Positions 615 to 64,000 of a stretch of 64,000 nt of DNA are shown piece after piece. The position numbers and the translations under genes were made by a program. The DNA is from Chrysomallon squamiferum (lineage: Eukaryota > Animalia > Mollusca), in NCBI GenBank assembly GCA_012295275.1, contig CM022666.1, positions 12,276,001 to 12,340,000 of the forward strand, read 5' to 3'. The notes under the pieces were generated by a model, which was not told the DNA's origin, ran no database searches, and saw only the letters and a program-made list of their open reading frames with translations. Within the stretch, counting starts at the first letter, position 1; the number at the start of each line of letters is the position of its first letter.

Positions 615-1529
615 ATGTCTTTTGATATAACTAAGCTTGATTTATATGGTATACTCGGAGTTGACGAGGAAGCGTCGGAAAAGGAAATTATCAAAGCTTA
701 TCGAAAAAGTGCCTTGAAATGTCATCCAGATAAAAACCCAAACGATGAGAAGGCAGCAGAAAATTTCCAAAAACTTTCAAAAGCTTTGGAAATTCTAACA
801 GATGTGTCGGCAAGGGCAGCATTTGATAAAATTATTAAAGCCAAAAAGGCTGCAGAAGTTAGACATAAACATTTGGATAGCAAGAGAAAAAAGTTCAAGG
901 AAGATTTAGAGGCTAGGGAAAAGGCATCTCTAGTTACAAAGAACACAGATTCGGAGGCACACAAAAATTTAATAGCAGAAATAGAAAGGCTTAGAAAAGA
1001 AGGATCAAAGCTGTTAGAAAGAGAACAAGAATTGCTGCGTCAAAGATTATCAGATAATCAGACAGAAGCAGACTCGTTTAAGCCTGAAACTGCTGCTTTG
1101 CCGAAATTAAAAATCAAATGGAAAGCTGACAAAAATGATGACTCAAATGGAGGTTATACTTACGATGATCTCTTCGAATGTTTAAATAAATATGGTGATA
1201 TATCAGCTCTTGTCGTTTCCAAAAAGAAAAATGGAACAGCTATTGTTGAATTTAAAAATGGCAGAGATGCCCAGTTTGTAATTCAGTATGAAAAGGGCCA
1301 CACTTCCAATCCACTGACATTTACATGGTTGTCTGGGAAACCATCAGAAGATATTTTGAACAATGATGCATATACTTCCAAACCAAAAAATTCAGATATG
1401 TTATCAAGTAAATCAAACTCCTCTCATGAGAGAGACTTTGAAAGTTTAGTTCTGATGAAAATGAGACAGGCAGAAGAGAGAAGAAAGTTAATTGAACAGA
1501 TGCAAAGAGAGGATGAAGAGATATCGTGA
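615..1529 (+). CDS. DNAJC17: DnaJ homolog subfamily C member 17 (Cwc23-like spliceosomal J protein), single coding exon, 304 aa
   Basis: N-terminal J domain with HPD motif ([10 protein letters not shown]), coiled coil ([14 protein letters not shown]), RRM-like segment (LKIKWK...GGYTYDDL...KYGDI...[10 protein letters not shown]) and the C-terminal [25 protein letters not shown] typical of DNAJC17. First ATG is 615 (the ORF track starts at TTG 606). AATAAA at 1605-1610. Confidence 0.95.
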
Positions 1530-10834: not shown

Positions 10835-13800
10835 TGATATGTACGAACAGACTATTATTTAGATTTAAATGATATTTTGTAAACAAACCGTCACTGTCTG
10901 TTCCCTTCCCGCTAATCATTTAATTTTGTTCTTGTGATTTGTTATTTTTTTCACCGTTGAATATACAGTATAAAATGTAGTACAACTAATACTTGCTAAT
11001 ATAACAAACTATAAAAGTAAATAAAGTGTCAAAAACCAGAAGGCTCCAAATTATCAGTAAAAAAAAAAAAAAAAAGACGAAGAAAAAAAAGGACCTATAA
11101 ATAATGCAAAAATAAAATAGAAAAATAAATAAAAACTTTGCACATTTTTGCATTTTCTGTCTCGAAATAGTTATGACATACGTAACAAATACTTTGGTCC
11201 AAATATTGTTCATTTATTTGAAGTCACACTTTTGTTACAACGTTCAAGAATGTGTGCACATTCTTACATAACCTTAAATTGTGCATTAAATCTTCATTTA
11301 ACATATTAAAACATTCAGATTTCTCTGAAAATATGTAGGCCCGGAGTCTGCAGTTAGTTTGACATTTATTTTATGTTCTGAGTAGTTTTTATTAAGCAAG
11401 TATTTGTTTTAAGCAGTTCTTCTAGATAGTTAGGAATTCGTGGTATTTGTAACGTTACTTGGTCTTACAACTTATAACGTTTTGTAAACTATAAATGGTG
11501 GTCTAAACTTATTTTTTTTTTTTACAAAATGTATGGACGCCAGGAGGCATTAGCAAACAGATCATTTAAAATAAAATTCCTTTTGTTTGCCCATATCTTA
11601 AAATAAATGCATTTATTATCAATTTTAATATAAGTTATACCAAATCGGTAGTCTTAGTATTTTTGCCTTGTCCCTTGAAGCTTGACATTTTTCTAGAAAG
11701 TTCGACCATGTGTGTAATATATTCTTTTCGGGATTTATTCTTATCAGCGATTTTGCGTCACGGTTGGCTAGTGAAGCTCTAACTGTAAACAATTAATCAA
11801 AAGCGAAACAATGTCTTGGTTCAAATACATTTAATCCAAAATTACTTAACATGCATTGCTCTTAAACCAGTATTTTAATAATCCTGAAATAATTTTTTTC
11901 TAACTGTTTTATCGAGCTTTATATTCCAAATGAACTGATTTTTAAAGAAAGAATCTGTTGGATTTGGCAGTGAAGAACAAAGATAACAAATAAATTTGGT
12001 AGATCTAAACTTACACACATTTTTACCAGAGATGACAAAGAACGTTTTGATCATTGTTCAAGCAGCCTTTTAACCTCATTCAACTTTGCATTATAGTTTA
12101 ATTTTTGTATTTTATACAAATCCGTGAAAAACCGTATCCTAAATATTATATATTCTGTAGTCCAGTTTAATTTATATTTTGATCACGTTTCTGCTATCAT
12201 TATGGTTTTTGCCTAATTTTACTATATTAGTTTGATCTATTAGTATTAAGTTTAAGATCAGATATACTGGTAAAATATTTTGATGTTTCCATAAATGCTG
12301 TAAGAATTTTATGACACCAGTCTAATAGCTGTGTTGTGTCGTCGGCAAACTGAAATTTTGAATTCATTGCCGTTTATCTCACCCGTGTGTATCTTTGTTA
12401 TTTTTTACCTAGATTCCAAGAATCTCAACACATAATATTAAAAAAATGAGATAACGGATCTCCTTGCCGTCATCATTTGCCAAACATTCAGTGATCTTAC
12501 AGTTTAGGTATAAATACGATTCACATTTATTATAATAGTTCGATATCCATCTTTGAATCGTGGCCCCAAACTTAAAATAAGCTAAAACTTTTTCAAATAA
12601 AATTCCACGAAATTGTATGAAAAGCTTTTTCAAAAATTATAATTAGTAATACCTCAGGCTTATTTTGTGTGTCTGTATAATATAATACATCACATGTAAG
12701 TCTGATAGTATTACTTCTTGATCGGTCATGCATTAATCCATTTTGATCTCTGGATACTATTTACGGATTTGATTCTTTCTGCAATAGCTTCTGACCCTAA
12801 TTTGTAGATATTTTGGAATGATACTGATCTCGAATTGTTGATATATTCTTTTGCCTTATCTTTCTTTGAAAAAAGTATAATAAAACCACATTTTTTATTT
12901 ATTTATTTTAATTTTTTTAGAGCTTAGATTGTGATTATAAGACTCCATATACTTGAATATTTCCATCAGAATCTTAAATTAATGTTCGACGCTTTCTACG
13001 TCAGTTTGTTTATTTGTACAGGTCCACTTGCTAGTGTTTTAGCACATTACGCCAGCTGTCGTGTTTCTGTGATGACAGGAGCAGTACTTTTATCTGTTGG
13101 ACTTGTCATCTCCAGTTTTACTTCATCTTTACCTGTACTATTCGTTTCCTTTGGAATTCTGTCTGGTAACATGAAAACTATTTTGACTCACATCTGTCAC
13201 ACATACATATATAAGATATGACGAATACATAACTTTTCTTTGTTTAACAAAAACAATTTATCAGTGAATAAAAAATACCTACACAGTAATCATTCAAGGA
13301 TAACCAGTTAGTCAATAACAGACTTTTCTGTAAAGAAAGAAATACTAAAATTTGAAACTGGTGAAGAAAAAGGCACTTACCAATTTATTTATTTATTTAC
13401 ATTTTTCAGGTTTGGGTTTAGGTTTGATCTATACTCCTTCAATTGTGGTAGTAAATTTTTTCTTCAAAAAGAAGCGTTCGTTCGTTAACGGGATCAGCCT
13501 GTCTGCGTCTGGAGTTGGTATACTTTTGTTTCCACTTCTGTGTCGTCATTTGCTAGATGTTTTTCTCTGGAGACAATCCATGTTAATTCTTGCTGCAATT
13601 TCAGCACAAATGATTCCTCTTGGTGCGTTAATGTTTCCGGTTCATGAGAAAACTAACAAATCCTGTATATCCTTTAGAGAACATCAAACGAAGGATGATA
13701 CAAGAAAGGATTTGGATGCGACAAAACCAATGATAACTGAAAACATAACACAAAACACAAGAAGCAAAGGCAATAAAACAAAACAATATACAATAATTAA

Positions 13801-15144
13801 GAACTCAGCGTTTTTACTTTTATGTTTTATGCTTTTATTGTGGAACGCAGGAACTGCTATTTTTCTTATACATTTCCCCTCCTTCTGCAAAGAGCACGGA
13901 ACAAGCAAAAACGAAATTTCTTACATCATGGCTTCCAATGGACCAGCGTTGATTTTTTCAAGAGTTATGATTGGTGCGCTCGGAAGTGACGAAAAAGTTG
14001 ATAAATTGGCTGTTTTCATAGGTCTTCTACTAATCAGTGGTACATATTTTTGTCTGACGCCATTGTTTGCCACGACAGTTCCTGCTCAGATAACCTTGAT
14101 GATTCTTGCTGGCGTCTTCAACGGTGGAACGTATTCTTTACTAGCTACGTTCACTATTGACACTGTTGGCTTACAGTTTCTTAATGTTGCCTTCGGGCTG
14201 GAGATGGTTTTTGCCGGAGTCGGATTTTTGATAGGTCCACCCATGGCAGGTACATGAACAGTTAGTTCTGTGGCATTCCGTTTTATAACCGATCTTACAC
14301 CTTTTTAAAGTCATTTTTATTATCCCATTATAAATTTAAAAAATTCGGATTACAATAGCTTTTAAACTGTAATATCGACAGCACTGACGGTAGGGTTTTA
14401 ATTTACTATTTATAATTTACAATCAGACGAGAAATCTGGATCAAAAATGTAAATAAATAAATAAAAATAAATATATATATTTTTTTATGTTTATGTTATT
14501 TGCTTATATAAATGATAAAACTGATGAATTTTTGACAAACCAAATAAATAAGGAAATAATGCAGATTTCGAAAATATAGCTTAATGAAGTAAAAATAATT
14601 TTACTCACTTTGTTTACTATACTGTGGCGCACATGAAACAGAACTGTTTTATGATTATAATTATATATAAAATATGTTTTAACAGAGTATCTTTTTTGTT
14701 TTGTTTTGTAGGATGGATGGTAGATAGCTTAGGGTCATACAACAAAAGCATGTTTTTAGCAGGTATAACAACACTAAGTGTGATGTTTTCGTTTCTTTTC
14801 TTTTTAAATATACTTCTTTTGGTTGAGAAATTTTAAAACTTAAAAGTATTCATAAAAAGTATAAAATATTTTCAAGAAAGAAAAATTCAGTTACACAATT
14901 ATACTTGCAGTCAATAAAACTCTAATTTTCTAACATGGTTTTCATTGTTTATTTACAGCCTTAATTTTCAAGTTTAGGTATGTCTAAACTATAAATACAC
15001 TTTAAAAGACTAACTGTTTTTATTTCATTTCCAGGAATTTTCATTTATCTATCAGCAGTTTTTCTGATGTTAATCCCAGTTGTACACAAACACAGAGAGA
15101 TTGATACAACTGAAGAAGTCAAAGAAAATAATGTTACACAATAA
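10425..15144 (+). CDS. Monocarboxylate transporter family (SLC16, MFS) protein, about 446 aa; coding exons 10425-10620, 13022-13165, 13410-14249, 14712-14762, 15035-15144
   Basis: N-terminal SLC16 signature DGGWAW, GPLASVL..SCR loop, FFKKKRSFVNG (YFxKRR-like motif), FSR in TM8, IGPPMAGWMVD..GSY. All four introns are GT-AG phase 1 and the exons join in frame (1341 nt). An acceptor (TTTGCAG) at 10404 implies upstream UTR exon(s). Confidence 0.92.
11140..11297 (+). repeat. Dispersed repeat copy 2, in MCT intron
   Basis: Direct, diverged copy of 10116-10300. Confidence 0.85.
11330..12875 (-). mobile_element. Degenerate L1/Tx1-clade LINE ORF2 fragment (reverse transcriptase and downstream region), antisense in an MCT intron
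   Basis: Minus-strand pieces in the expected order: AIAERIK, DQNGLMHDR..NTIRLTCDVLYY, EK/AFHTISWNF / KVLAYFKFGATIQRWI, RQGDPLS (12469-12449), LCVEILG, QFADDTT (12352-12332; RT catalytic YADD-type motif), LNYNAKLNEVKRLLEQ*SKRSLS, LPNP..FIWN, ILRLPIWYN. Many stops and frameshifts. Confidence 0.88.
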
Positions 15145-19106: not shown

Positions 19107-20323
<1,217 letters not shown>

Positions 20324-51449: not shown

Positions 51450-52682
51450 ATGTCACCAAGTGCGTCACCAACGGAAGAATGTCTGAACAACACGACTGGG
51501 TCTTACGTCATCCGCTCTTCACCCAGTGACGTGCATCACAGAGCAGAGTGTCCTGACTACGACCTTCATCCCTGTGACATATGCTTCTCGGAATGCTGCT
51601 GTAACTTTTTCAGCTTTGTTGGGAAACTGTTTTGTATCAACGTAAACCAGTCATCTCGAATCAAAATACTCTGGTTGTGGGTGATTTCAATTTCCGTTAC
51701 TGCCGGAATTCTTACAAATTTAATAACATTTGGGCCAGAGACTAAAATTATTTCGCCAACAGACATGCGTATTGTCGATAAAAAGGTTTCCACGACATTC
51801 TGCGAAAGCCTGTCGCTGGAATCGGAATGGACAACTTTTAGCGCGTATCTTCTTCCGCAGAAACCGAGTATAGTGTTTAACAAACTTAGTCGTTTTGAAG
51901 TCAAAAGAAATAAATATTTAGAGCAGGGAGAATTCAAATATTGGAATTTTTATCTTCTCAGCGGTTCACAAGTGACGATTAAAAGTTGTTCCACGCTCGC
52001 ACTTGAACTTTACATTCTTCGTGGAGCTGATAATCTAAACAAGTGGATGGAAAACAAATACTGCGACAGCTGCTTCGTTCAGAAAGTGGCTATCAACAGA
52101 ACGTGTGAGAGCAAAGTGACTTTCAATTTCCAGATGGACGTGACAGATGAATACTACTTCATCTTCGTCAACAGTCTCAACGTCAGAGGAACCTGGCTGA
52201 CACTGCAGATTCTTCTAGAACGTACTCTCTACGACGTTTCTGACGCCAAAGTCACCTGCATCCAGTCGATATCGTGTTCCTTTAATTTGGACGTTGTCAC
52301 CGATGAGGTGGTCGTCTACCAGATTAGCAACGATGACCAGATTTTCGATTTCGACGACATCACGATACAGACCAAATGCAACGGCCGCACCTGGTTTTAT
52401 TTGGTCGTGTTTCTCCTCTTTCCCTTCTCAGTCGGCATCACCTGCTGTTCTGTTATCTACTTCACGTGCAGACAACCAAGCGAAAGTCTCGATCTTTCAA
52501 GACGGTCAACACTGGACGGGCGGATGATCGAAACCTACTTTACAGAAAGGTCTCCCCTCTTACGGGGACAAATGCGGTACCCACCTCCTCCTCCACAGTT
52601 TGCTGTTGCACCGCCGAAGTACGAGGACGCAATTCGAGGCGATAACCCCGCCCCTCCTTCTTATGATGAAGCTGTAGGATAA
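51450..52682 (+). CDS. Two-TM membrane protein with APD1-4-like (plant E3 ligase N/middle) domains, no RING, C-terminal PPxY motifs; 410 aa, single coding exon
   Basis: Long ORF with an acceptor at 51422 and ATG at 51450. TM1 ILWLWVISISVTAGILTNLITFG; ISPTDMRIV..STTFCESL; FKYWNFYLLSGSQVTIKSC; DEYYFIFVN; ERTLYDVSDAKVTC; CNGRTWFY followed by TM2; tail with ERSPLL, PPKY, PPSY. The CDS is well supported; the domain assignment is from remembered motifs only. Confidence 0.8.
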   Translation: MSPSASPTEECLNNTTGSYVIRSSPSDVHHRAECPDYDLHPCDICFSECCCNFFSFVGKLFCINVNQSSRIKILWLWVISISVTAGILTNLITFGPETKIISPTDMRIVDKKVSTTFCESLSLESEWTTFSAYLLPQKPSIVFNKLSRFEVKRNKYLEQGEFKYWNFYLLSGSQVTIKSCSTLALELYILRGADNLNKWMENKYCDSCFVQKVAINRTCESKVTFNFQMDVTDEYYFIFVNSLNVRGTWLTLQILLERTLYDVSDAKVTCIQSISCSFNLDVVTDEVVVYQISNDDQIFDFDDITIQTKCNGRTWFYLVVFLLFPFSVGITCCSVIYFTCRQPSESLDLSRRSTLDGRMIETYFTERSPLLRGQMRYPPPPPQFAVAPPKYEDAIRGDNPAPPSYDEAVG

Positions 52683-53526: not shown

Positions 53527-55355
53527 TTTTTCCACCATTATTCATTTACCAAACACAACCATATACACATACACAATACTCACACGTAGAACACACACTC
53601 AACACATAATTCCCAGACACATTTCACTCACACATACAATATACACATACAGACAAACACCACACACACACACACACACACACACGACACACACCACACA
53701 AGACACACACATACGCACACGCACAAAAAGATGAGATACAAATGCAAAATAATTATCAGTGATATTTATCTGTCTCTCACGCACTCTCAAGCTGGTATTA
53801 AATGATCCATCTGCATATCTCCTTTTTCCATCGAGCTTGTGAATTCAGTGAAAATAACTTGAGCACAAAACTCGTTAATTCGTAGACACATAAATGCTAC
53901 ATCATTTTGAAATAAAAACCAATCATATTATGTTATACCGAAATAAAAACCTCAAAGGTTATTAAACGAGTTTGGGATTTTTTACGATTCTGTGAAAGTT
54001 AAATCTGTGAACAAAAAGGAAGTTCTATCTGTGATTTACATAATTATTTGATATGTTACTATATCGGCCAGTGACAGAGATATAAAGTCTTTACGTTTTA
54101 CTATATAATTTACACACTTCCCTGTGATTATGTTACATTATACTTGCACCCAGCCGTTGCTAATAATAAAGTATAACAATACAATAAATCTGTATATAAA
54201 TACAGTGAAAACAGATCTCCTGTCTTTTTAGTTTATTCTGAAGTGACAAAACAGATGACCTGACACACAATGCATGCTTACTATTTATAGGTTTTCCGAT
54301 GATAAATCTAAACAGCCACAAATTTGTCGTGAGTCAGTTTCATATTTACATGTTTGTGTTTCCTTTGCTAAACACGTCTAAACTGTGACACGTGCGGTTC
54401 ACTATCGGCTGAATGATTTCTGTAAGTAGAGGAGGTACACATATACAACATATTCAACAAAACAGTATAACTGAAACACACTGAACTATTGTTTATTTAT
54501 TTTTTTTTTTTGTTGTTGCGCTGAACATTCATACATATTTAAACTGTAAGAACGATAATAAAATACATACTAAATATCTAACAATATTTTTATTTTTGAA
54601 TTTTTATTCATAATAATTGAATGAACGAACTAGTTATTTTAATTTATATTAAAGCTATACATACACAAACACACACACACATACACAACATAGATATTCA
54701 TATGTGGTTTAAATTGCACATAACAATACAGTACATTCATAAAATTCTCTTTAATGCTCGCTGGTTAAGAAGAGTGTAAACTACCTGGTGTGTGTGTAAA
54801 TCGACACGTAAACCACTTTTAAGATGCTTGTGAAATTCAACAAGTATAAATATCCTTGATAGGGAGAGAGAGGGAGGGAGAGAGAGGCAGAGGGGGAGCG
54901 AGAGAGGGGGAGAAAGAGAGAAAAAGAGAGAGAGAGGGGGGGAAATGGCAACAAAAAGGATTTCTAAATTTCATACATATTATCACCCATTTTTATCTGT
55001 TTCATTTATTTTTATGAAAGGTTAATATAACATTCTAATATAACAGTATAAGTGCAGTAAATATTTTAATAAAATTTTCGAATAACTTAAATTGTACATT
55101 ATTGGTCGCTGCATATGACATAAGAATACCTCTCTCTCTCTCACAGACACTCATATACAACACGCAGAAAGGAACATACATACATATATACAAAATTACA
55201 TACATACACCCTTATATGAACACACACATTGGTGTAGCCACATTCACATACTCGTAAACACTCAGTAATTGTAAATACATAATTTACTGACATAATATTA
55301 AAACAATTATTACAACATTTACGAGCTAAAACAACATTAACTGAACTATTTGTTG

Positions 55356-56504
55356 TTAAATGAAAGAGTTAAACATTTCTTTTTTATATTCCGGGTTAAC
55401 AACTTTTCCCACGAACAAAACTACCTCTGTTCGGTTGTCCTTGACAACAAACATGAATGGATGATCAGCCATGAACGTCTTCGGTCTGCTGATGGAGATG
55501 GAGTCTACACAGTCCATTGACGTCACTGCTGCCGCTTCCGTGCCTTCCTCGTTAACTTCCACAAACGTCTTGTGCTGAACACTCGACACGAACAGAGATC
55601 GCGTGCCATCAATTCCTGACAGGTCAGCCGTGTTAGCCTGAAAGGCGTCAGTCATGCCCAGGCTAATTAGGACATCCTTTAGCTCGAAGCTTGTTTCCAT
55701 GTAGAATTTGGGAAGGAACAAGTCCACCTCTTCTTCTTTCAGGCCCTGCATGGCTTGGACAATGTTTTCATACGACAGGTTGACATCGAGGCCGGTCAGA
55801 CCCTCCACGTCAAAAGGCAGAAAGACGTACATGCTGAGTTCTTCGTTACCATACGGCAGTTCGATGACGTCACACTGCAGCTGAGTACTTTTTCCAGTTC
55901 TGAAGTACTCCGTTTGCTGCATCATCTGACATTGGTTCTGCTCTTGCTTTGACGTTCTGAAGGGTTTCTCTGTCGTGTTCTCAGCATCAAACCTATTCGA
56001 CCATGTTCCTTTGAAGTACACGGCGTTAAGCAGAAGAATCGCTGTCACAGTGGACAGGCTATCTTTGGAGACAATATTTGTTATTTTACCTCGAGTCTTC
56101 TCTGAAACCCACTGATTAATCTCATCAGCCAGCGCTGCTGGATTTTCCGTGAAGTCTGTTTTTATGATCTCTGCCTCAAATGTCTGTTTAGCTTTAGACT
56201 CGAACTCTGGCTGCACACTGACTCGGTGAGCGATGTACGCCCGTGTAGCAGACGACAACGTAATGCTGTTTTTTGTACTTTTCAGCAATTTCAGGTAGTT
56301 CTCCATTACTGAATGAAACGAACTGGACAAGCCAGGAATTTTTACAACATCCAGAATCTGTCGTAAAGTTGATCCAGACGATCCACAGGCGACCAGCGAA
56401 AGAAGAGTTGATATGCTGAATGGTGACAGAAAAAGATTGCAGTGACAACCATTGCTTAGAAGACGGTATAAATCAAAGCCGAACTCCAGTGTTGAACGAG
56501 ACAT
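55356..56504 (-). CDS. Intracellular serpin (ov-serpin / leukocyte elastase inhibitor-like), 382 aa, intronless CDS, inhibitory-type hinge
   Basis: NLFLSPFSIS, INQWVSEKTRGKI, LLNAVYFKGTW, IELPY, LPKF, VEVNEEGTEAAAVT hinge, FMADHPFMFVVKD..LFVGKVVNP. No signal peptide. Acceptor TTTTCAG at 56529-56527 just upstream of the ATG. Confidence 0.96.
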   Translation of the reverse strand: MSRSTLEFGFDLYRLLSNGCHCNLFLSPFSISTLLSLVACGSSGSTLRQILDVVKIPGLSSSFHSVMENYLKLLKSTKNSITLSSATRAYIAHRVSVQPEFESKAKQTFEAEIIKTDFTENPAALADEINQWVSEKTRGKITNIVSKDSLSTVTAILLLNAVYFKGTWSNRFDAENTTEKPFRTSKQEQNQCQMMQQTEYFRTGKSTQLQCDVIELPYGNEELSMYVFLPFDVEGLTGLDVNLSYENIVQAMQGLKEEEVDLFLPKFYMETSFELKDVLISLGMTDAFQANTADLSGIDGTRSLFVSSVQHKTFVEVNEEGTEAAAVTSMDCVDSISISRPKTFMADHPFMFVVKDNRTEVVLFVGKVVNPEYKKEMFNSFI

Positions 56505-57683
56505 ATCTGTGTGTTACTGCAGCACTCTGAAAATAAAAAAACATTGAGTGAACAGTGTAAAATAAACGTATTTTAAAACCCGTGACCTTTTCATCGACGA
56601 TCTGCGTTTTCTACCCAGCGACAACAAATCCCAGGAATAAAATATCTAGTGAAGATAAAATGAAGAAATTATTACCGAATCTATGTACATTAGGCGCAGA
56701 TTTATGTAAGTGACACATTTTATAATCTAATAAATGTAAATACATGGGATTCGAACGAACTCGCATACATAGTTGTATTAACCTACCACCACGACTGTGT
56801 ATGAGTGTTTGTTTTACAAGTATATGTTTGGGTGTATGTGCGCGAACATACAGATAAATGGAAATGAATACAACATGAATTCTACTGATAAAAACATCAA
56901 GAATAAAAATCCAATTTGGCATAAATTTGGTTTAAATAAGATTAAAACGAAAATGAATAAATAAATAAAAAACAATAATAATAATAATAATAATAACAAT
57001 AATAATAGTAGTTATAATAAGCGAACGTCAGTTATGGTCACAAAGTTTTATACTTCATTATTAATTCTACAATCAGTTTTTACCGCCTGCAGAGAAGTTA
57101 TCAACCTTTTAACTGGGAAATGTTATTTGTACGCATTCAGTCAGCGGTTTTATTTTAACAGCTTTTCCTAACTGTTACTGTTAGACAACAAGATTATAAT
57201 AAATACACGCTACCCTCCATTTAACAGTAAAGAATCAAGGAAATATAGAAAATTTTAATATTCTCGAAACAAAATATTCCGATTCTTACTCTATGATCAC
57301 AACAAAACAATTTCAATCTACTTTGCACCAGGGTAAGTAAAAACTGTGATTTTAAAGTAAATTTAGTTCTGTATATTATTCAGCTATTTCTAACAACTTT
57401 CGGAAAATCTAGATTTTTTGGTTTCCTAACATCCTTTGCCCCTTTCAGTCCATTAAGTGGAGAGCAGACTGTTCTTAATCAGAATTTTTTCTAATCACCT
57501 AATACGAAGGCTTCATTACTATTGTTATTATTATTACTTCAAATAATATATAATGAAAAATTATATTAATGTGAAATATTTTATTTTAACTATTTTGTTT
57601 AGTAAACGGAAATAAAATGATTCGAAACGTGTTTGAGAGCTGACAGAATTTGATTCACTATATTGGTATATGGGCGTGCGGGC

Positions 57684-57737
<54 letters not shown>

Positions 57738-58190
57738 TTTTTGGTGGTTTTTTGCCTATCATTTTGTATCTTTTGTGTTCAAAATATGACAATGCTTTAC
57801 TTTCATTGATTTACTGTCATTCTAGCTCTTTGTAATAAACTCTCGTAAATATCGAATTGAATATATTAGGTATGCAGTAATACTAATAATACTACTACTA
57901 CTACTACTAATAATAATAAACAAAAACTTTTACTACTACTACTAATAATAATTAAAAAACAAACAAAACAAAAAACAACAAAAAAAAACACCTTCGGTTA
58001 AAATCGGAGTATTTGACGTTTCCATGTCAGATGACCTACTTTTAGGATCGAGTTTGGATAAACAAAGAAATGACAAGATAAAACGTATGATATTCTTCCC
58101 TTATAAAACAGTAATTACATGCAAAAGCCCCAGTTTCTAAAACAACATTGTTTCATGTCGTACAGAAGCGACGTGCATGCATTTTCTTAC

Positions 58191-58290
58191 CTATTACTTT
58201 TTCTTTCCTTCTTCCTGTTTCAATCTTAGCCTCGAAACCGATCGATAAAAGCTATGTTTGTCCAGCTTTCGGTAAACATCGGTATGTTCC
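58191..58290 (-). other. Candidate non-coding first exon of serpin 1
   Basis: Minus-strand donor TAG|GTAAGA at 58191/58190 could pair with the acceptor at 56527. The upstream boundary is unknown. Confidence 0.4.
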
Positions 58291-63043: not shown

Positions 63044-64000
63044 TTAGCTGTCAGACGGCCTCAGCACTTTGCCTATGAACAACACGACTCCAGTCCGGTT
63101 GTCTCTGATAACAAAGATGAAGGGATGATCCACGACAAAGTAAACGAGTTTTGATCTAAAGGGACTGGGTCCACAGTTCCTCACTGAAGCATCGTTTTCT
63201 TCATTTCCTTCCTCGTTCACTTCTACCACAGTTTGGTGCACGAACTGTGAAATATGAAGACCAGTGGTTCCTGCAATACCAGACAAATCGGCGCCGTCTT
63301 TGAAGGCGTCTGTTATTCCCAGGCCTGAGAGAATACTGCACAGGTCGTAGAATGAGGTCATACGGAATCTTGGAAGAGAGACGTGTACAAGCGTGGGTTT
63401 GACGGAGTGAAGCGCCGTCTGTAGTTTTTGCTCGTCCATAAGCCCCGCCTCTAGCAGAGGCAGACAAGATGTCTGCACAGGAAGAAAGATGAACATGCTC
63501 AGATGTCGATTAAAGTACGGTAACTCCACCAGACGACATTTGAGGTCAGCGAGAGCAAAGTAGGGAAATAGTTTCTGCATGTTCATCATTGACACGTGCA
63601 CAACTTGACCATCCAGTGTCTTAAAGCTGTCCATTTGGGTGTTACTTTTATCGAATGGGTAGTTCCATTTACCGCTGAAAGACGCAGAGTTTACGAGAAA
63701 CAGTTTGGTAAAATCGCCAATAACGCCAGGAGGTAACAGCTCCTTCACAACGCCATTTGTTTCGTTTTCAAGCCAAGTATTGATTCTCTTGCGAATATTC
63801 TCGCAGCTATCCTCGAAATCCACGTTCTCGACAGCCGCCTTGAAACACTGAAGAGTCACGTCTCGATATTCATTACGTACAGCAAATTTGTTAGCAACAA
63901 GTATCCGATTTGCTATTTGCAGATTATAATATTTCTGCTTTTCAGTTAGTAAATCTAACGTTTCTGAAAACAACTGAGGAAGGGACTCAGAAATTTTACA
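63044..64000 (-). CDS. Second serpin, 5'-truncated by the window edge, probable non-inhibitory hinge
   Basis: Frame stays open to 64000 (CKISESLPQLFSETLDLL...). IANRIL, INTWLENETNG, LFLVNSASFSGKW, LVELPY, LPRF, VEVNEEGNEENDAS, FVVDHPFIFVIRDNRTGVVLFIGKVLRP. Confidence 0.93.
   Translation of the reverse strand, partial: CKISESLPQLFSETLDLLTEKQKYYNLQIANRILVANKFAVRNEYRDVTLQCFKAAVENVDFEDSCENIRKRINTWLENETNGVVKELLPPGVIGDFTKLFLVNSASFSGKWNYPFDKSNTQMDSFKTLDGQVVHVSMMNMQKLFPYFALADLKCRLVELPYFNRHLSMFIFLPVQTSCLPLLEAGLMDEQKLQTALHSVKPTLVHVSLPRFRMTSFYDLCSILSGLGITDAFKDGADLSGIAGTTGLHISQFVHQTVVEVNEEGNEENDASVRNCGPSPFRSKLVYFVVDHPFIFVIRDNRTGVVLFIGKVLRPSDS

Follow-up and report, generated by a model that had tools for sequence, protein, structure and literature searches.

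A gastropod serpin with a conserved MDCVD bait and CrmA-like aspartate placement: a candidate animal-encoded caspase inhibitor

Viruses and a microsporidian parasite are the known sources of serpins dedicated to trapping caspases; animals are considered to depend on IAPs, and SERPINB9 is a slow inhibitor of caspase-1. Antitrypsin and PAI-1 have been reported to dampen caspase-3, which is unconnected to a DXXD bait. Caspase-directed serpins are known from poxviruses, trapping of the CrmA type combines a thioester with loop insertion, and executioner caspases are poorly inhibited by wild-type CrmA (PMC7863939). The bait sites read LVADC in CrmA, VVAEC in SERPINB9 and DQMDG in baculovirus p35 (PMC2315678); caspases require Asp at P1, their specificity is set by P4, and DXXD is common to caspase-3 and -7 (PMC12052993). 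SERPINB9, which has Glu340 as P1 and has been described as a host inhibitor of caspase-1 (PMC2064598), acts on that enzyme slowly, at 7x10^2 per M per s (PMC3152296). NbSPN14 of Nosema bombycis binds and inhibits the effector caspase BmICE and blocks apoptosis, an effect lost in its P1 mutant, so that the pairing of a serpin with an effector caspase is already known (PMC11741654). Under P17 numbering of serpin loops (PMC6405850), position 17 is the cleavage site in most serpins, and position 16 is used by some animal serpins (PMC3534287).

The window analysed here, a stretch of 64,000 nucleotides from the vent snail Chrysomallon squamiferum, consists of AT-rich animal DNA that includes DnaJ, MFS and Arf genes, and carries on its minus strand an uninterrupted serpin ORF contained in one exon (Table 1). 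The Pfam Serpin profile (PF00079, positions 4-370) matched residues 6-371 with an E value of 1.9e-115, and the structure model lay within an rmsd of 1.4 Å of cleaved horse elastase inhibitor (1hle_A); the 382-aa protein is a full-length serpin in both domain and fold. Its closest database relative is a Gigantopelta aegis protein (62-63% identity), followed by abalone proteins. A second serpin (63044-64000, minus strand; Pfam E 3e-86; ~35% identical) runs off the window and is likely non-inhibitory because of its charged, bulky hinge, EEGNEENDA. The serpins of the window are part of a serpin cluster, and coding regions in the window appear intron-poor.

Table 1. Positions of the serpin gene, its transcript features and neighbouring open reading frames in the window.
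Feature	Position	Strand	Basis
382-aa serpin coding sequence	55356..56504	-	single exon; Pfam match; model pLDDT 88.7
Small-residue hinge of inhibitory type, EEGTEAAAVT (Glu319-Thr328; loop positions 1-10)	55521..55550	-	sequence
Bait Met330-Asp-Cys-Val-Asp334 and Ser335, predicted P5-P1 and P1'	55500..55517	-	MDCVD kept in 5/5 relatives
Untranslated start of coding exon, in-frame TAA four codons 5' of ATG	56505..56526	-	sequence
GT-AG intron in 5' leader, 1,664 bases	56527..58190	-	one X3 contig, short side
Non-coding first exon, 3' end only mapped	58191..58203	-	X3 contig loose end
Downstream exon start, joined to donor within coding exon (after 55425)	54390..54419	-	X3 and X4 loose ends, one study; GT-AG ends
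Long uninterrupted ORF, DnaJ plus RRM protein	615-1529	+	
Long uninterrupted ORF, MFS transporter exon	13349-14257	+	
Long uninterrupted ORF, Arf GTPase	19778-20323	+	
Long uninterrupted ORF, APD1-4-domain membrane protein	51450-52682	+	

Of eight sequencing runs compared with the gene, four gave matching records; X1, X2, X5 and X6 gave none, which can result from filtering. One X3 contig departs from the coding exon at 56528, and its 11 loose bases have a single match in the window, at 58193. An alternative splice, from 55425 to 54419, would give a 365-aa form that lacks residues 361-382, which include the last strand, and retains the bait; this form is probably misfolded or inactive. The loop was covered by two contigs from two studies (X8, and X3 record 1), with zero differences within it. 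Evidence for transcription was taken from the splice joints rather than from X8 coverage, since DNA in RNA run X8 is uncontrolled. Differences in other runs all lie outside the loop, at positions 55609 (Asp299Gly, in X8 and one X3 contig), 55746 (silent), 55785 (Asp240Glu), 56270 (Asn79Asp) and 56477 (Phe10Val). Because the serpin fold begins at residue 6 and an in-frame TAA stands upstream of the ATG in the spliced leader (one contig), the protein has no signal peptide, as originally predicted; an ER-retention end is also absent, and these features point to a cytosolic location. N-terminal extensions and KQEL/KTEL ends are seen in the Arg-Ser paralogues P0162 and P0005; both features are missing from 5 of 5 proteins that share the bait described below.

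The reactive centre loop was found where it had first been placed, on the minus strand within the intact serpin ORF, and reads EEGTEAAAVTSMDCVD|S, with the codons of Glu319, Asp331, Asp334 and Ser335 at 55550-55548, 55514-55512, 55505-55503 and 55502-55500, respectively. Counted from the first hinge Glu (Glu319), Asp334 is the 16th residue. The original prediction had assigned this Asp to the position of the CrmA P1, and the register was confirmed by an ungapped phmmer match to CrmA (1f0c_A; query 4-27 = 275-298), in which Asp334 aligns with CrmA residue 303, which we take to be its P1. By a corresponding ungapped match to SERPINB9 (8zcr_A; query 3-27 = 310-334), P1 Glu340 falls at position 17, and the cleaved miropin chain 5nct, again matched without gaps, terminates at position 16. 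Kgp belongs to the same clan as the caspases. Miropin traps this cysteine protease at its P2-P1 bond (bioRxiv 2025.09.05.674453). The hinge of the window serpin is the same as that of miropin, and positions 10, 12 and 14 are neutral; judged by its residues it is of the inhibitory type, small enough to be fit for insertion into sheet A. The distance from the hinge Glu to the DHPF motif is an ordinary 26-28 residues, so that the CrmA-like feature is the placement of the Asp only. The inserted loop of the structure model also ends at Asp334, an agreement given little weight because AlphaFold often inserts serpin loops.

MDCVD occupies positions 12-16 in 5 of 5 relatives (the window gene, Gigantopelta aegis and three species of Haliotis), at 40-63% identity between genera: XP_041358381 of G. 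aegis is 63.5% identical to the window serpin, and XP_048258256 of H. rufescens, XP_071084309 of H. cracherodii and XP_067668699 of H. asinina are 39.8-41.6% identical to it. The proteins span two gastropod subclasses; since the three abalone sequences are 81-97% identical to one another, the five represent two deep lineages only. When the D-x-x-D-S motif of the original prediction was followed through these relatives, both Asp residues proved invariant and the Ser was not kept, position 17 being S, C, G, G and G, and later positions vary as well. Within the window/Gigantopelta pair (63.5%) loop identity ends at Asp16, and within an Arg17-Ser paralogue pair of similar divergence (P0162/P0005, 60.4%) the loops are identical through positions 16-22, each observation being of one pair.

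For comparison, 428 distinct loops were read by pattern from 457 proteins, those without a pattern match being left out; the 457 had been chosen by similarity and are rich in bacterial and vertebrate serpins. Among the 423 loops other than MDCVD, Asp13 was present in 15, Asp16 in 17 (unrelated loops, mostly unnamed or bacterial) and both in none. As ~0.6 joint occurrences are expected, a single DxxD is unusual yet weak evidence, and it is the conservation that exceeds chance. A second control used 1,500 random pairs drawn from 234 single-domain serpins, 1,021 of which fall at 35-46% identity; positions 12-16 were all identical in none of these 1,021, and four of the positions were identical in 7. 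With MDCVD invariant, position 17 variable, identity ending at Asp16 and both controls at zero (0/423 and 0/1,021), Asp334 is very probably the P1 residue. Our reading of this pattern is selection for a P5-P1 site whose last residue is Asp334.

Trees were computed with the loop removed. A careful tree of 17 rows (LG+G4, built without near-duplicates or long rows) grouped the window serpin with gastropod serpins (88/95), apart from frog and fish rows, and joined the vent-snail and abalone groups at 62/41; a quick tree of 32 rows placed these two groups apart, without support. The stems of both groups are long (0.6-0.75). For the MDCVD loop, common descent is more likely than an independent origin of the same five residues, and an exchange of loops between paralogues may instead have produced the common bait. 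Orthology to vertebrate clade B (SERPINB1/B9) was rejected, as the tree places the window serpin with gastropods and the database name reflects similarity only. Membership of the poxvirus SPI-2/CrmA group was likewise rejected: this is a host gene with a spliced leader, it lies beside other animal genes, and its nearest relatives are gastropod; in a fold search the poxvirus serpins were 14-31% identical to it.

Wider searches returned few comparable loops. A profile of four relatives gave zero new MDCVD proteins among the best 120 matches, and a loop-only search (best 120 of 3,042 candidates) found MDCVD only in two known Haliotis proteins, the rest being bacterial or unnamed serpins; as it missed Gigantopelta, this search is insensitive, and it is by such insensitive searches that no further MDCVD copies were found in other molluscs. 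One further relative, with a prediction that ends before the loop, came from the 1.84-billion search, together with a serpin domain of Macrostomum lignano (P0173, UniRef A0A1I8IHN3, residues 323-339) that reads TCVVD|C, with Asp at position 16 and no P4 Asp. The P0173 model appears fused or mispredicted, and its domain was left unplaced in the tree. A degenerate DNA pattern had 10 matches in metagenome contigs, none of which lay in a serpin by translation; viral contigs yielded one serpin, without Asp16. The ESM Atlas returned generic serpin clusters only, and the name of its top cluster, 'B member 9', was not counted as evidence. Two ENA proteins, P0135 and P0339, are close to the Gigantopelta protein, and their predictions turn into simple-repeat sequence at a Gly that precedes the hinge by ~30 residues, which suggests an intron at that Gly, absent from the window gene. 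P0004, P0005, P0007 and P0010 of Haliotis rufescens are listed as RefSeq isoforms X3-X7 despite quite different bodies and loops, which hints at a serpin cluster with common 5' exons.

What the bait is for was considered from the residues themselves, the DXXD form pointing to a caspase-3/7-like target. That the physiological target is a caspase appears probable; that it is of the effector type and truly trapped is a closer call, which we lean towards. The mechanism we modestly favour is that a snail caspase-3/7-like protease would be trapped in the cytosol by suicide inhibition, on cutting after Asp334. The caspase would read Asp331 in S4, Val333 in S2 and Asp334 in S1, cleavage would form a thioester with the enzyme, and the cut loop would enter sheet A in the manner of CrmA. 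Met330 and Cys332 would then point inward, Asp331 and Val333 would point outward, and the trapped caspase would be left distorted and inactivated. Working alongside IAPs, such a serpin would probably clear executioner activity that is low or stray. Bivalves have expanded caspase-3/7-like families, and their executioners are without direct vertebrate orthologues (PMC7836458), so that the P4 preference of these enzymes is an assumption.

Charge is distributed along serpin loops in a manner that bears on the choice of bait residues. In the 423 control loops, charged residues occur at positions 10, 12 and 14 in 0%, 1.2% and 1.4% of cases and at positions 13, 15 and 16 in 19%, 16% and 24%, the alternating pattern that burial of the even positions upon insertion would produce. 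Met330 and Cys332 stand at positions of the buried type and Asp331 and Val333 at positions of the exposed type, so that the invariance of the latter two needs a partner as explanation. The P3 Cys could then be a compromise, since an ideal DEVD in the same register would place Glu at position 14, where burial is required, and DCVD avoids this. Ekert et al. in 1999 are said to have found that CrmA-DQMD inhibits caspase-3 and that CrmA-DEVD is more a substrate; their title reportedly states that optimal substrates are not necessarily good inhibitors. Cys is found at position 14 in 0.7% of the 423 loops, yet is invariant in 5 of 5 MDCVD proteins. It had been suggested that this Cys makes the serpin redox-switchable, a proposal that found no support: a small neutral residue is expected at a position so seldom charged, which explains Cys332 without a redox switch. 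A switch as the common mechanism was set aside, as a CxxC pair is present only in the Gigantopelta protein; some chemical role for the invariant Cys332 is possible.

It is unlikely, on our assessment, that Asp334 is P1 and the partner is some other Asp-cutting protease (a caspase-2/-8-like initiator, a mollusc-specific caspase or a pathogen enzyme), or that the loop is merely cleaved as a substrate and the serpin thereby disabled. Caspase-2 needs a P5 residue, for which the invariant hydrophobic Met would be suitable, but caspase-3 favours Val at P2 more than caspase-2 does, and the P2 Val is thus better suited to caspase-3. CrmA, in the same register, targets caspases-1/-8 and is poor against -3, -6 and -7 (PMC7863939), novel initiator as well as executioner groups exist in bivalves (PMC7836458), and the flatworm domain reads CVVD|C in this register with no Asp at P4; in the gastropod proteins, however, the P4 Asp, a mark of caspase-3/7 sites (PMC12052993), is invariant in 5 of 5. 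The retention of a small hinge and of neutral inward residues suggests that insertion, and not merely cutting, has been under selection.

Quite improbable is a guard against leaked lysosomal cysteine proteases, whether a cathepsin with Val333 in its hydrophobic S2 pocket or legumain cutting after Asp334. Cathepsins cleave SCCA1 at position 16, the place at which the Asp stands here, and Val15 is invariant; papain-type enzymes, however, need no Asp at P1 or P4, which would leave both invariant Asp residues unexplained, and legumain, an enzyme active at acid pH, has a preference for Asn. Inhibition of cathepsins is nonetheless an established activity of the intracellular serpins SCCA1, hurpin and SRP-6 (PMC7863939). 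Least credible is a count of 17, with Ser335 as P1 and an elastase- or subtilisin-like serine protease as target, which agrees with the cut site of most serpins (PMC3534287), with the small size of Ser, Cys and Gly, with Thr at canonical position 10 and with the ordinary loop length, but leaves positions 12-16 invariant beside a variable position 17 (S/C/G/G/G) and variable residues beyond, where the matched paralogue pair conserves position 17 and the P' side.

Returning to the trapping of a caspase-3/7-like enzyme, a broader and distinctly tentative reading is that gastropods may have kept, since before the vent-snail/abalone split, a cytosolic serpin dedicated to trapping executioner caspases. 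It would be the cellular equivalent of CrmA and p35, and its DCVD would be an effector-caspase site still insertable into sheet A. It might be one of several spiralian Asp16 serpins, given the flatworm domain, and provide invertebrates with a second layer of caspase control that is independent of IAPs. If so, animals would possess a second kind of endogenous caspase brake, and the loop would show how nature deals with the failure of some ideal caspase sites in serpin loops. The gene would also be directly testable in farmed abalone, where infection involves cell death.

The MDCVD proteins of Gigantopelta and Haliotis are annotated only as 'leukocyte elastase inhibitor-like', and searches of the open-access literature found no description of them or of any animal DXXD-bait serpin, though subscription journals and supplements may differ. 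Compared with known systems, the window serpin resembles cowpox CrmA (orthopox SPI-2) and myxoma Serp2, which are intracellular serpins with P1 Asp in the same register and a small P1', and from this likeness we infer a cross-class mechanism of the CrmA type. CrmA differs in being viral, in having Leu at P4 (LVADC; PMC2315678) and in targeting caspases-1/-8 and granzyme B, with executioners poorly inhibited (PMC7863939). NbSPN14 shares the predicted P1 Asp but is secreted by a parasite into its host, whereas the window serpin belongs to the animal itself and lacks a signal peptide. Human SERPINB9 (PI-9) is, similarly, a host-encoded serpin of cytosolic type with an acidic P1, but this is Glu at position 17, its P4 is Val (VVAEC; PMC2315678) and its main target is granzyme B. 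Baculovirus p35, a suicide inhibitor of caspases, presents a DXXD bait, likewise with a small residue after it (DQMDG; PMC2315678), on an unrelated fold, and is viral. XP_041358381 of Gigantopelta and the three Haliotis proteins carry the same MDCVD and likewise have no signal peptide, with Cys or Gly at P1'.
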